Source: Eledone cirrhosa | Taxonomy: Eukaryota | Assembly: GCA_964016885.1 (NCBI GenBank) | Contig: OZ024765.1 | Span: 10,230,001 to 10,294,000, forward strand | Length of the DNA: 64,000 bases | Reading direction: 5' to 3' | In this document: positions 1,381 to 64,000 of the stretch, one piece after another | Numbering within the stretch: position 1 is the first letter of the stretch | How the letters are laid out: each line of letters opens with the position of its first letter | Position numbers and translations under genes: made by a program | The notes under the pieces: generated by a model | What the model was told of the DNA's origin: nothing | Databases searched by the model: none | Seen by the model: the letters and a program-made list of their open reading frames with translations, nothing else

Positions 1381-1464
1381 ACCTTTACCGAATCGGTTTC
1401 GAATCTCAAAACTAAACGGAGACCATACGGCCTTCGTTGCAAAGAAAGATTCTCGTCAGAAGGT
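1381..1464 (-). ncRNA. Type I hammerhead ribozyme motif with extended stem II
   Basis: Reverse complement: acctt CTGACGA gaatct..[aacgaaggcc gtat ggtctccgtt]..agattc GAAA ccgattcgg TA aaggt; all three stems pair. Confidence 0.8.
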
Positions 1465-1734
1465 TCTTTACATTCGAAGAATATAAAATTCTCGAACTTA
1501 AATTAAAAACTGGCGCTATTCAAAATTGTTCCCGAGATGAGAGTGAATGAAGTAATAATAGAATATGTGTTCCTACACGCACAATGCGCTAAGGGACACA
1601 TGTATTGTCCAACCAAATGCCAATGTGGTTCAATGGCAGGTTAATAAATTAACGAGCCAGAACATATATAAACAAGGTTTAGCAAATAAGAAAAAAGTTT
1701 CAAAATAAATTTTATATATATATATATATATAAA

Positions 1735-2108
1735 TGAGGCAAGCATGCTCCATTGGATGTGCAGTGTAAATATGCGTCAACGACCCAGCATGAATGTGTT
1801 GAGAGAGAAACTGTGTCTGAGAGGGATAGAATGTAGTGTACGGGAGAGGAGACTGAGGTGGTATGGACATGTGATGCGTATGGAGGATGACCGATAGGTG
1901 AAGAAGTGCCAGGAAATGCCAGTTGAAGGAAGACGTGGTAGAGGTAGACCACGAAAAACATGGGCGGAGGTTGTGAGAACAGACCTCAGATCGTTGAAGC
2001 TCACGGTGGAGATGACGAAGGACCATGACGAGTGGAGAGATGCTGTGCTGAATAAGACCCGTCCCACCCTTGCAAGCAGGGAAGAGCGGACATAAAATGA
2101 TGATGATG
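1735..2108 (+). mobile_element. RTE-clade LINE 3' fragment
   Basis: [31 protein letters not shown], ending in a (TGA)n tail. Confidence 0.88.
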
Positions 2109-2565
2109 TACCTCCTCTTTATTTCGGCCGCGGATGGCCAACAACTCCATACAACATCCAGTCCTAAATAAATGAGGTCGTGTAGGTGTCACGACAAAAA
2201 AAAAACACAGTCCACGCTGTAATGTGGCCTTATAGGTAACACAGTAAAAACCTCCCAGTCCACACTGTAAACGTGGTTGTTGTTAGGAAGGGCATCCAGC
2301 CGTAGAAAACCTGCCAGACAGTCCTATACGAGCAAGACAACCAATCTTGCCTCAAGTGGGAAAATTCCCATCCAAACCCATGCTAGCGTGGAAGATGGAC
2401 GTTAAACAATGATGATGATGATGATGGTATATATATATATATATTACAAAAGGGAAGTAAGGTTCTATACAAATATATATATATATATATATATATATAT
2501 ATATATATATATATATATATATACAATATATTAACAAATGGAAACTATATTTATAAAACCATATT

Positions 2566-2631
2566 TATTTTATTATACATATTTCAAGGGCCACCAAGGC
2601 AAATTATGGTGTGCTCTCATCAGATAAAATA
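2566..2631 (-). ncRNA. Minimal type I hammerhead (left arm of fold-back element)
   Basis: Reverse complement: tattttat CTGATGA gagcacacca..tggtggccctt GAAA tatgta TA ataaaata. Confidence 0.78.
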
Positions 2632-2714
2632 CAATACAGATAGGAAGCTCCAACCGTTAAGGTTGTCTTTTTTCAGGGTATGTCAATATTTATTTATAAA
2701 ACAAATCTGTATTG

Positions 2715-2780
2715 TATTTTATCTGATGAAAGCGCACCATAATTTGCTTTGGTGGCCCTTGAAATATGTATAATGAAATA
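2715..2780 (+). ncRNA. Minimal type I hammerhead (right arm of fold-back element)
   Basis: tattttat CTGATGA aagcgcacca..tggtggccctt GAAA tatgta TA atgaaata. Confidence 0.78.
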
Positions 2781-2975
2781 AATATGGTTTTATAAATATA
2801 GTTTCCATTTGTTAATATATTGTATATTTACTCCACTTATCGGTTGAGTGCTTTATATCAGTTATAAAAATGTTTAAGCTTGTTGAATCCCAACAAATTA
2901 AATATAACCTCTGCATATATATATATATGTTGTAGTAAAAGTATAAAAATATATATAGTATATATTATTGTGCAG

Positions 2976-3147
2976 ATCAGACGCAGTACATCGTGCCATT
3001 TCAAACTGTTGCCAAGTAATCCCAGTCTTTACTATGAAGTAGTATACAGCGGTGGCTATCTCGTCAGACATTGTACATATGGCAGTGTATTTGATGCCAT
3101 AAAATGTGCATGTGAAAAGAAAGCAGGGGGCAAAGAAGATGATATTG
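2976..3147 (+). CDS. Coding exon 2: chitin-binding-like module 1 (IRRSTSCHFKLLPSNPSLYYEVVYSGGYLVRHCTYGSVFDAIKCACEKKAGGKEDDI)
   Basis: tgcag| acceptor, G|gtaagt donor, 172 nt, phase 0-1; motif C..NPxxYYE..G..RxCxxGxxFxxxxCxC. Confidence 0.88.
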
Positions 3148-3230
3148 GTAAGTAACTCCCCTTGTCTTTGTTTCTCCTCCATTTTATTTTCTGTATGTGT
3201 AGTAATACTGCGTGCATATATATATATATG

Positions 3231-60443: not shown

Positions 60444-60645
60444 CAATACAGATCAGTTTAATAAATACCCTGAAAAAATGCAACCTTAACAGTTGGAGCT
60501 TCCAGCAAGATTAATATGGCTCATTGATTACTCAATGAATAGTTTTACAATAGATTAAAAGCACTCGACAGTGAATTTTCCTGGAGTTTTTAATATTATT
60601 CAAAATATTAACAAATGAAGATATTCACATAATCAAAATATATGC

Positions 60646-60706
60646 TTTATTATATATATTTCGAAGGTACTGTGTTATTTTTTCAGTACGTCCTCTTCAG
60701 ATAAAA
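60646..60706 (-). ncRNA. Minimal type I hammerhead (left arm of ~650-bp palindrome)
   Basis: Reverse complement: ttttat CTGAAGA ggacgtactg..cagtaccttc GAAA tatata TA ataaag. Confidence 0.75.
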
Positions 60707-60990
60707 TATATGATTTGATATATGACATACTTTTACGGTCTTGATATTTCAATTATAGTATTGGCAGTGATTTATTTCATCTAATCTCAACATTTATATA
60801 CCACAAATAATATGATAAACTTAGAAAAGGACATGCAGCGAATTAGAGATTTACACCCTCTCTTATATCTCTAATTCACTCCACGTCCTTTTCTACTTTT
60901 TAATTGTTGAGATTAGATGAAATAAATCACTGCCAATACTATAATTGAAATATCAAGACCGTAGCGGTATGTCATATATCAAATCATATA

Positions 60991-61052
60991 TTTTATCTGA
61001 AGAGGACATACTGAAAAAATAACACAGTACCTTCGAAATATATATAATAAAG
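60991..61052 (+). ncRNA. Minimal type I hammerhead (right arm)
   Basis: ttttat CTGAAGA ggacatactg..cagtaccttc GAAA tatata TA ataaag. Confidence 0.72.
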
Positions 61053-61379
61053 CATATATTTTGAATAATATTAAAAACACCAGGAAAACTTTACAGTCGA
61101 GTGCTTTTAATCTATTGTAAAACTGTATTCATTGAGTAATCAATGAGCCATTTTAATCTTTGGTTATATATATATCATCATCATCGTTTAACATCCGTCT
61201 TCCACGCTTGCATGGGTTTGGACGGGCGTTTTCCCACTTGAGGCAAGAGTGGTTGTCACACTCGCATAGGACTGTCTGGCGGGTTTTCTACAGCTGGATG
61301 CCCTTCCTAACACCAACCACGTTTGCAGTGTGGACTGGGAGGTTTTTACCATGTTACCTATATATGTGTTGTGTTGTTT

Positions 61380-61760
61380 TGCAATACTGGTTGGTGTGGA
61401 AGTCGGACCTTCGTAAAGTCCGGAAGATCCATCTCTTCGTTGAGACTTGGACACTGACCAAGAAACTCACTCAGATGATGGATGGGTGCTACACGAGAAT
61501 GGCACTGAACATTGATCAGTATACACTGAGGATGAAGAAGTCTGAGATGTACGGGAGCCTCTCAAAGGTCAGCTCGAAAGTAGCACGGGGGAGACTGAGG
61601 TTAGCTGGACATGCTCGCCGACATTCAGAGCTCCTGTGGGAGCCCCTACACGGACACACTAGAAGAGGGAGACCGATGTTGACATATTTTGATGCCCTAA
61701 GGACAGACACTGGTCTCTGAGACATGGCGGTGATGATGAAGGACAGAGACCATGGACCTT
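61380..61760 (+). mobile_element. Second RTE family 3' fragment (also 56412-56705 in two orientations, and 57725-57882)
   Basis: VETWTLTKKL..DGCYTRM..RLRLAGH..LLWEPLHGHTRRGRP. Confidence 0.82.
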
Positions 61761-62249
61761 GTGTATGAACATAAATAAATAATAGAATATATATCATCGT
61801 CATCGATTTTACGTCTGCTTTTCAATGCTTGCATGGGTTGGACAGTTCCTCACTCCACTTCTAGTGTTGCTTCATCTCTTCTGCCACTCTTAGCGATTTG
61901 AGGTCTGCCCAGGTCTTTCTTTATCATCATCGTTTAACGTCAATCTTCCCACGCTAGCATGAGTTAAATGGGTTTGTCCCACTTGAGGCAAGATTGGTCG
62001 AGTGACTGTGTCTCGCTCGTATAGGACTGTATCTGGCAGGTTTTCTACGGTTGGATTCCCTTCCTAGTGCCAACCCACATTTACAGAGTGGACTGGGAGC
62101 CTTTTTACTGTGTTCCCTACACGACCACTTTACAGTGTGGACTGGGTGCTTTTTGTCGTGACACCTACACAACCTTATGTGAGGGCTGGTTGTTCTGTGG
62201 TACCAACATAACTTTACAGAGAAAGGGTGGTGTGGGGGAATGTATATTG

Positions 62250-62750
62250 TGTTAAGAGCTGCCTACTGAGTATAGGTTTAAGTTCGTACGTAAGGAAAGG
62301 TGTGTCTTCTGTATTAATGCATAGCACCAAAGATATCGATCCAGTGACATTGTCTTAGAGAGGTGCAAGTGTGCAAGGTCAGATTTTATCACCCCATCCC
62401 AGGTTTTTCTGGGTCTACCTACTCTGTAGCTTCCATCAATTTTGATGGTCCTGCACGTTTTTATAAAGCTGTCGTATCACATAACCACATAATCTCCTTT
62501 CAAGTAAACTGCATCTGATCCCTTCTAATTTCAAATTTCTCACTTAGTTCGTGTATATTACTATTAACACATCCATGCTTCGTTCCTTTCCAATCTGTGC
62601 AAATCCTTTGCACACAATGCCCAGGTCTCACTGCTATTCATATACAAGCATGATACAATCTGCCTTTCATGGGCAACAGCGGTATAAGCTCTCTGAACTT
62701 TTTCCATCTCGTTCTAACTCTGGCTACAGTACTTTCAGAAAAAACCTTCT
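62250..62750 (-). mobile_element. Degenerate RTE LINE fragment
   Basis: Reverse complement resembles 38056-38620 (gtaggtagacccagaaaaacctgggatg; aagttcagagagcttataccgc). Confidence 0.75.
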
Positions 62751-64000
62751 CTCCTGCTGATTTTATCACCCAGCTAACAGAAAGTTTCTATTATTTCTAT
62801 AGAACCATTTGGGCAGTAGGAGCTAGTATCCAGTGGGCACTTGCTACTTACTGCACCTGAGCATCGGCCACATATAAAAATCTACATTTTTAGATAGTTT
62901 ACCTGTGATCCCGCTACATCTTTTATGTACCCAGTTTGCATTTAGGGCCTAGAATGGAACTTCTACCTACTCATTTTCTACATTATGAGCATTGCCATTT
63001 CCCAGAGGGCTCCTGTGCCAAATTTTCCTTTCTCCATACTAGAACTTTAAGTCTTAGACAAGTTAACTCTAAAGCCTCTTGATTCTAGGCCATGCTTCCA
63101 TGTTTGGAATTTCTTCTCTAGTTCAGCCATGAGATGTCAACATGAATGGACATGTTATTTTTATCTGAAGACATTTTTTCCAATTCCAACCCGCCCGTCC
63201 CCTCAATCTATCTTATTTCTCATTCTTTATTCTGATAAAGGACTAGCGTCTGAAACGTTAAGACCTTCTTCTTGCTATATCAATCGTTAACCTAATATAT
63301 CCCTTCCATATACTGTACCGATTGTGTTGTTATTTCTGTTTACCTTTTACATACATATATATATATATATATATATACACATATATATATATATATACAC
63401 ATATATATATATATACACATATATATATATATATATACACATATATATATATATATATACACACATATATATATATATATACACACATATATATATATAT
63501 ATACACACATATATATATATATATACACACATATATATATATATATACACACATATATATATATATATACACATATATATATATATATATACACATATAT
63601 ATATATATATACACATATATATATATATATACACATATATATATATATATACACATATATATATATATATATATATACATATATATACATATATATATAT
63701 ACATATATATATACATATATATATATACATATATACATACATATATATACATACATACATATATATACATACATATATATATATATACATATATATAGAT
63801 ATATATAGATACATACATACATATATATAGATATATACATATATATATATACATATATATACATACATGCATATATATATAGAGTGTTATGGTGCTGACC
63901 CTGTATGGCAAAACATTGTATTCTGTCCAGGTGTTGTTTCGTTATGAAAGGGTGTGGGGGTTGTGCATTTTAACTTACCTTTCCAGTTATTATATATTTT

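Follow-up and report, generated by a model that had tools for sequence, protein, structure and literature searches.

Why should a 64,000-nucleotide stretch of the genome of Eledone cirrhosa (GCA_964016885.1, contig OZ024765.1, positions 10,230,001 to 10,294,000; hereafter the window) carry so many hammerhead ribozyme (HHR) motifs, and what kind of element brought them there? A first-pass annotation listed twelve well-formed and eight weak motifs and assigned them to an extremely dense population of short non-coding elements mobilised by Penelope-like elements (PLEs). Our analysis leads to a different reading of the same motifs. They are very probably type I hammerhead folds at the 3′ ends of PLE copies inserted in (TA)n, and their abundance would result from frequent 5′-truncated insertions, often with an inverted arm. 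The window belongs to contig 26 of the 3.0-Gb genome; it is 68% AT, and about 46% of it is masked as simple or tandem repeat.

Hammerhead motifs and their abundance

The CUGANGA and GAAA boxes are intact in all twelve motifs listed as well-formed, with the core C3 at 1459(-), 2623(-), 2723(+), 4107(+), 4801(-), 5139(+), 9998(-), 31082(-), 59858(-), 60435(-), 60700(-) and 60997(+). U16.1-H17 and helices I and II are present as in type I hammerheads, and nine of the twelve pass a fixed descriptor that combines the hammerhead core, a foldable helix II and a helix I of 4 bp or more. The other three (5139, 31082 and 60435), which do not pass, each have a single mismatch beside the core. A tenth descriptor match, at 21386(+), is well formed and had been overlooked. 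Chance matches could be expected in DNA so rich in AT and masked repeats, and two of the weak motifs (14478 and 21088) may indeed be chance or decayed sequences. However, 200 local dinucleotide shuffles gave a mean of 0.025 matches (maximum 1) against the ten observed, and the reversed window sequence gave 0. In the genome, the exact pattern of the main superfamily matched 83,618 times and the reversed pattern 0 times, and helix II covaries across copies. Chance is thus already refuted for the twelve main motifs, and its probability as a general explanation is negligible. The hammerhead motifs are real and are predicted to self-cleave. The eight weak motifs are a mixed set: the one at 7421 is an intact U3-A8 variant and five are damaged copies of real families, while 14478 and 21088 are doubtful.

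The first-pass annotation was also right that these are PLE-linked type I hammerheads with a palindromic helix III that escape annotation based on open reading frames (ORFs). They escape Rfam gathering scores as well: a scan of the window at gathering thresholds gave 0 matches, and no Rfam hammerhead model appears among the 150 of 376 E-value matches listed, where microsatellite and microRNA matches dominate.

The motifs had been divided into several unrelated stem-II families. This is wrong for ten of the twelve, because these align as a single homologous superfamily; only 1381 and 9998 are distinct. Since three are inverted pairs, about nine insertions account for the twelve motifs. All five helix II pairs tested have changed on both sides among 16 aligned sequences, and 95.8% of helix II cells are paired, a value reached in 0 of 500 shuffles, a control that ignores relatedness. 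Over 123 distinct sequences from the genomic loci sampled, helix II pairing was 86% versus 70%. Pairs 1-3 alternate among A-U, G-C and G-U in this set, and the first pair is A-U in 69, G-C in 29 and G-U in 19. Changes in helix I are one-sided only. The helix III insert of the main superfamily consists of self-complementary hexamers, whereas families E, F and G have a 4-bp helix III lacking a palindromic hexamer.

These features resemble the minimal PLE hammerheads of Cervera 2014, which likewise occur as dispersed single motifs from truncated PLEs and as opposite-strand pairs 100-700 bp apart, with a long helix II, a palindromic loop 3, the U3-A8 variant and many families per genome. Those reports concern 2,000-9,000 motifs per genome. 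The main superfamily also differs in detail: it has neither the unpaired base before helix II nor the conserved G10.1-C11.1 pair, with mostly A-U at 10.1-11.1, and the fourth pair of its helix II is a conserved C.Y mismatch. Both of the missing features are present in family H. At pair 4 (e.g. window 2733 and 4117), a near-invariant 5′ C stands opposite a pyrimidine or A and is unpaired in 121 of the 123 sequences. This C is a candidate tertiary contact.

The density of the window, previously described as extreme, is not unusual for this genome; it is the genome itself that is very rich. The descriptor matched 70 times in 799 kb of sequence, taken as 80 unselected 10-kb samples. Densities per 100 kb rose from 3.9 on contigs 1-4 to 10.7 on contig 26, 10.9 on the other small contigs sampled and 30 on a set of four mid-sized contigs, where a single array supplies 15 matches. 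The probability of ten or more matches in 64 kb is 0.14, or 0.22 with the chromosome-26 samples only. For the main superfamily, the window holds about 5 times the genome mean (9 exact-pattern matches versus 2.8 per 100 kb) and 1.6 times the value in the chromosome-26 samples. Since the kind of element is already known, the window by itself is ordinary for its genome.

Three non-overlapping exact patterns (0 matches in controls) set a genome floor of 83,618 + 25,341 + 260 = 109,219 matches, which gives a density of no less than 3.6 motifs per 100 kb. The length-weighted estimate from the 80 samples is 3.0x10^5 motifs (bootstrap 1.3-5.2x10^5). It was obtained with the stricter descriptor because a permissive version (97 matches, 3.9x10^5) admitted about 11 low-complexity false matches and was set aside. 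A loose hammerhead-core pattern matched the whole genome 540,225 times against 101,340 in the control. It is strand-asymmetric (203,786 versus 336,439), unlike the symmetric family patterns, and was therefore not used as a count. Its surplus of about 130,000 single-strand matches suggests that the pattern recurs in a very large tandem array, or in a few of them.

Published counts include about 4,000 HHRs in coelacanth, 9,000 in Xenopus tropicalis and 2,000 plus 1,300 in Schistosoma (PMC4209133), and more than 6,000 in Acropora, about 5,000 in Mytilus and up to 120,000 in axolotl (PMC7229834). With an axolotl genome of 28.21 Gb (bioRxiv 10.64898/2026.07.22.740005), the last figure corresponds to about 0.4 per 100 kb versus at least 3.6 here, with different methods. 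Because the counting methods differ, a record richness is not proven.

Penelope-like elements as the source

The longer copies share one layout: reverse transcriptase (RT), a CxCX5C linker and a GIY-YIG endonuclease, then an AT-rich 3′ untranslated region (UTR) of 1.0-1.7 kb, the HHR, a further 110-190 nt and (TA)n. The last 150-600 nt are all that most copies retain. Where an inverted 5′ arm is present, it ends 85-110 nt before the element 3′ end, and we call the missing part the tail. Family A (4801/5139) gave 1,956 first-look genome candidates, of which 40 were scored; its copies share a 3′ end point and differ in where they begin at the 5′ side, and an inverted arm about 90 nt short is frequent. 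TA repeats follow directly 3′ in 18 of 18 anchor matches for family A and in 15 of 19 for family C. Pairs of neighbours no more than 6 kb apart in the first 100 genome matches comprise 28 divergent, 3 convergent and 7 direct arrangements, at spacings of 136-5053 nt. This excess of divergent neighbours fits the expectation for inverted 5′-truncated arms.

The ORF-linkage loci were picked as long copies or inverted pairs, and those of family J were reached from genome pattern matches. A same-strand RT and GIY-YIG ORF lies about 1.5-1.7 kb upstream in long copies of family A (L021-L024, L229). Same-strand PLE ORFs are also found upstream in family B (L202, L203, L206), in family J (L147-L150, L159) and in 15 of the 20 family C loci found with its upstream UTR. 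In family F, L194 is a full HHR-ORF-HHR unit, and in family H a PLE ORF lies upstream in one of seven extended loci (L280, Neptune/Nematis-type). In total, the families of 11 of the 12 listed motifs include longer copies with a same-strand upstream RT/GIY-YIG ORF, and 5′ truncation is continuously variable in the ORF-bearing families. The claim that the motifs mainly represent short non-coding mini-elements of unrelated families is not supported.

By their motifs, the ORFs of families A, B, C, J and F appear to be Hydra-clade PLEs. This clade is defined by RWK, DKT and CxCX5C motifs, (TA)n targeting and HHRs (PMC8557442). Here, RT is followed by a C-terminal GIY-YIG, and the CxCX5C linker is present in these five families and in a sixth subfamily, M. 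RWK is found in L194 and RWR in L202, DKT in families A, J and F, and EKT in family B; the family C sequence does not extend to these motifs. By inspection, the Hydra-type ORFs lack CCHH and have CxxC and CxH around E and N, and their insertions favour (TA)n. The Hydra clade of C-terminal EN+ PLEs described in PMC8557442, which includes Hydra-1_Obim of Octopus bimaculoides, is alike in its RT-GIY-YIG order, RWK, DKT, CxCX5C and lack of CCHH, in its (TA)n target and in having a type I HHR close to the 3′ terminus. The N-terminus and HHR layout of L194 also resemble those given for Hydra-1_Obim in that paper. There are differences from the same account. It gives few families, generally under 3 kb, and tails of 30-40 bp for PLEs, whereas we find at least six subfamilies, 3′ UTRs of 1.0-1.7 kb, tails of 85-110 nt and 83,618 exact HHR matches from a single superfamily. 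Family F, with two HHRs about 1.5 kb apart, is also unlike the described Hydra clade. Families D and H have a CX2-5CxxC linker and, by inspection, a CCHH-type GIY-YIG, and are probably Neptune/Nematis-type, the two clades taken together. The window ORF at 10206-12290 and L280 share this linker and endonuclease type, followed by an HHR, with the Neptune/Nematis PLEs of PMC8557442.

We propose that the PLE endonuclease nicks (TA)n and that RT initiates at two positions close to the 3′ end, which would leave the tail. RT would copy the HHR first and usually terminate early, and a second priming event would yield the inverted arm. Because the HHR would be copied first and second priming would add an inverted arm, each insertion should leave one or two hammerheads, independent of ribozyme activity. 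The position of the HHR, 110-190 nt from the 3′ end, implies that nearly every insertion would copy it. A purified anole PLE is reported to show two RT start sites, which match the tail seen here (PMC11167929). Self-cleavage of the hammerhead folds is predicted; with its palindromic 6-nt helix III insert, the main superfamily would require two RNAs (a dimer), and families E and F may cleave as monomers.

Three further observations concern these elements. Family F PLEs (L194 at 4571 and 6486; L168, L170, L174, L175, L177) carry two related 3′-UTR hammerheads, the first about 400 nt past the endonuclease and the second 1.1-1.5 kb further. Cleavage at both would free an RNA without an ORF, which might serve as a retrozyme precursor. 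The 3′ tails of families A, B and C share a conserved short motif (window 5259-5290, 31188-31220, 59683-59710 and 61097-61124), which is a candidate RT-binding or priming signal; a similar motif lies just 5′ of the family F start codon. Palindromes lacking an intact hammerhead occur at 14412-14468, 20205-20488, 31280-31510 and 57478-57584. They are probably inverted PLE tails, and 57478-57645 resembles the family F tail.

Retrozyme-like tandems and competing readings

The motif at 1381 represents a different kind of element, family E, which is built of 483-484-nt head-to-tail units, each with a type I HHR; the window copy is a monomer. The family has 37% GC, a longest ATG ORF of 59 aa and 260 exact genome matches to a 24-mer, and none of 16 loci, at 15 distinct places, has a contiguous PLE ORF. 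Eight of these loci, mostly picked as opposite-strand pairs, have inverted arms that reach 3.5 units, with both ends in (TA)n. There are two alternative 3′ ends, 109 nt apart, and the predicted circular fold is 58% paired (z = -2.1 versus 40 shuffles). In L271-L272, a 2.3-2.9-kb block with family E arrays is itself repeated in tandem at least 8 times.

Elsewhere in the genome, a 482/~420-nt retrozyme-like family has 25,341 exact HHR matches. One 482-nt array (L163 2660-9876 and L041 1-3728) has 7 units in one orientation and 16 in the other, and L286 and L287 also hold arrays of this family with inverted arms. Other ORF-less HHR tandems have units of 311 nt (L199 321-3755), 457 nt (L196 3427-6001), 310 nt (L197 3482-4910) and about 420 nt (L146). 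Units on opposite arms of one locus are 99.96% identical in the 482-nt family (83 pairs) versus 83.6% between loci, and 100% identical in the 311-nt family (18 pairs) versus 98.7% between loci. The near-identical inverted arms suggest PLE-driven rolling-circle copying, but young age or assembly homogenisation could also produce high identity within arrays. PLE enzymes likely copy the ORF-less 310-485-nt tandem units from RNA circles or multimers. The retrozyme-like population envisaged by the first-pass annotation thus exists, while 1381 is the only such element of the window, and its insertion footprint is that of the PLE ends.

These tandem families speak for regarding short non-coding retrozyme- or SINE (short interspersed element)-like elements as the mobile unit for most motifs. 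That description is true of family E and applies to the ORF-less arrays elsewhere, including the abundant 482/420-nt family. It might extend to family H (window 63128; L252-L270), where about 7 of 19 copies start within about 10 nt of a common point, which may reflect a short subfamily that is non-autonomous or a site where copying tends to stop. Conversely, long copies with ORFs and a 5′ end that varies continuously already contradict it for families A, B, C, D, F and J, and no window motif has a same-family direct-tandem partner at unit distance. We consider it improbable as a general explanation. A still less probable alternative treats the inverted pairs as the terminal inverted repeats of TA-targeting, MITE-like DNA transposons, with the hammerhead as incidental. 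The TA-flanked palindromes of 200-650 bp at 2525-2914, 4711-5229 and 60507-61160 have this appearance. However, their arms are unequal, with a tail of 85-110 nt on one, the spacing varies continuously from 136 to 5053 nt and many copies are single-armed. Long spacers contain RT/GIY-YIG coding sequence, and neither a fixed element length nor a DDE transposase sharing the ends was seen.

Truncated PLE insertion therefore remains the preferred reading, although several observations weigh against it or parts of it. Because the linkage loci were picked as long copies or inverted pairs, they show the identity of the families and not the share of full copies. Family G has no parent ORF (0 of 22 copies), and family E has no similarity to PLE ends among 11 reference stretches of an incomplete PLE set. 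In family E, inverted arms of the same locus are as similar to each other (0.93; 17 pairs, windows partly truncated) as arms from different loci (0.93). The clade assignments are made from motifs, and some elements exceed the size generally given for the Hydra clade, a descriptive and not a diagnostic trait (L202 extends from an ORF start at 3622 to a 3′ end at about 7300, and L194 is longer). Minimum-free-energy folds of single motifs reach the full hammerhead only for 21386, and the others show alternative pairings. As to the ribozyme, HHR mutants of the anole PLE inserted normally, and no reads ending at the cleavage site are reported (PMC11167929). Only one of nine Xenopus retrozyme dimers cleaved in vitro (bioRxiv 10.64898/2026.07.22.740005), and minimal HHRs are described as cleaving weakly (PMC4209133), which argues against a needed role of the HHR.

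A broader proposal is tentative, and we rate it slightly below even. A burst of the Hydra PLE clade, supposed to be a minor one, may have given this genome more hammerheads per base than any other animal genome counted so far (at least 109,000 motifs, probably about 300,000). The arrays, with their multi-unit inverted arms, (TA)n ends, tail and arm identity of 99.96-100%, might record PLE rolling-circle copying, and the two-HHR PLEs of family F could be a birth route of retrozymes.

The element kinds themselves are known. PLE hammerheads, both dispersed and on opposite strands, have been on record since 2014, retrozymes since 2020 (PMC7229834) and the octopus Hydra element since 2021 (PMC8557442), and a PLE origin of retrozymes is argued in a 2026 preprint (bioRxiv 10.64898/2026.07.22.740005). 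The metazoan non-LTR (long terminal repeat) retrozymes of PMC7229834 and this preprint, proposed there as PLE-mobilised, are alike in being ORF-less, low-GC tandems of a few hundred nucleotides with a type I HHR and PLE co-occurrence. Both papers base their argument on co-occurrence and homology, and the preprint explains arrays by local amplification. Unlike the published retrozymes, the arrays here carry the PLE footprint itself (inverted multi-unit arm, (TA)n ends and tail), as read from DNA only. What is new here is the scale, together with the tandem arrays with near-identical inverted arms and a PLE footprint. Our literature search found no hammerhead or retrozyme count for a cephalopod, and no cephalopod retrozymes; subscription papers and preprint supplements lay largely outside it, and earlier counts may exist. 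The main text of an Octopus vulgaris repeat annotation mentions a PLE expansion and does not mention ribozymes (PMC13282606).

The scale matters, as the genome holds at least 3.6 motifs per 100 kb while Rfam gathering scores register none in the window. Tens of thousands of copies in several subfamilies form a natural mutagenesis set for testing selection on PLE hammerhead cleavage. Through the PLE footprint on retrozyme arrays, the enzyme that moves animal retrozymes, and the use of circles, become directly testable.

Features of the window

Table 1. Hammerhead-bearing and related features of the window (positions count from its first nucleotide).
Feature	Position	Strand	Remarks
Family E HHR element, about 0.9 unit with internal deletion	1273..1714	-	unit is a 483-484-nt ORF-less retrozyme-like tandem
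Family E HHR	1381-1464	-	branched 52-nt helix II, 4-bp helix III; element 3′ end in (TA)n
Family C Hydra-type PLE 3′ end	2525..2914	+	HHR 2715-2780(+); (TA)n both sides
Inverted 5′ arm of 2525..2914 element	HHR 2566-2631	-	without the ~85-nt tail
Family J Hydra-type PLE 3′ end	4038..4204	+	HHR 4099-4170
Family A Hydra-type PLE 3′ end	4711..5330	+	HHR 5131-5186(+); (TA)n both sides
Inverted arm of 4711..5330 element	HHR 4755-4813	-	without the ~90-nt tail
GIY-YIG endonuclease remnant, Hydra-like PLE	6709..7113	+	
HHR, U3-A8 core variant, palindromic helix III	7421..7465	+	~310 nt past GIY-YIG remnant 6709..7113
Neptune/Nematis-type PLE, 5′-truncated	9803..12290	-	RT, CX4CxxC linker, GIY-YIG; ORF ends 10206
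Family D HHR	9958-10002	-	~210 nt downstream of 10206-12290 PLE ORF
Degenerate HHR, sister family D2	12538..12590	+	separate insertion
Possible degenerate minimal HHR, U4 changed	14478..14512	+	unproven; no further copy among loci examined
Decayed HHR-like repeat	21088..21130	+	inverted partner at ~20960; helix I uncertain
Family F Hydra-type PLE 3′ end	21257..21576	+	well-formed HHR 21379-21438
U3-A8 HHR family copy (26817), 3′ half	26760..26845	-	5′ core box lost
Family A-related PLE end	30977..31255	+	inverted arm with HHR 31024-31090(-); direct arm tail only
Family G copy broken at inversion junction	39034..39181	-	no intact core; parent element not found
Family G copy (57662)	57666..57720	+	core intact; helix I 5′ strand lost
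Family C PLE end	59775..60035	+	inverted arm with HHR 59802-59866(-); direct arm tail only
Family C PLE 3′ end	60250..60503	-	HHR 60378-60443
Family B Hydra-type PLE end	60507..61165	+	HHR 60991-61051(+); inverted arm with HHR 60646-60706(-)
Family H copy (63232), core mutated (G8 changed)	63128..63345	+	

Three readings of these features were rejected. The motif at 12538 is not the inverted arm of the 9998 element, since it is a separate insertion of the sister family. The direct neighbours 60700, 60435 and 59858 do not form a retrozyme tandem; they belong to different subfamilies and are separate insertions. An antisense ORF at 59412-59804 overlaps a PLE tail and was dismissed as a gene. No parent ORF was found for the U3-A8 family of 26817. 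A Pfam search gave only a weak RVT_1 match in the window PLE and nothing meaningful in nine other ORFs.

Further fragments akin to the 3′ part of the window Neptune/Nematis-type PLE, lacking an intact HHR, lie at 17850-18963. Fragments at 5501-5798, 37823-38572 and 62241-62724 resemble the C-terminus of RTE-type long interspersed elements. The window has no intact hammerheads from 31.1 to 57.6 kb, and long minisatellites with units of about 108, 36 and 33 bp occupy 32246-33999, 39422-43283 and 46500-56000. An open frame of 249 codons at 9026-9775(+), Thr/Ala-rich and lacking a Pfam match, is possibly a host exon or low-complexity DNA. Finally, 15427-15512(-) shows a weak match to U2 small nuclear RNA (36 bits; gathering threshold 46).

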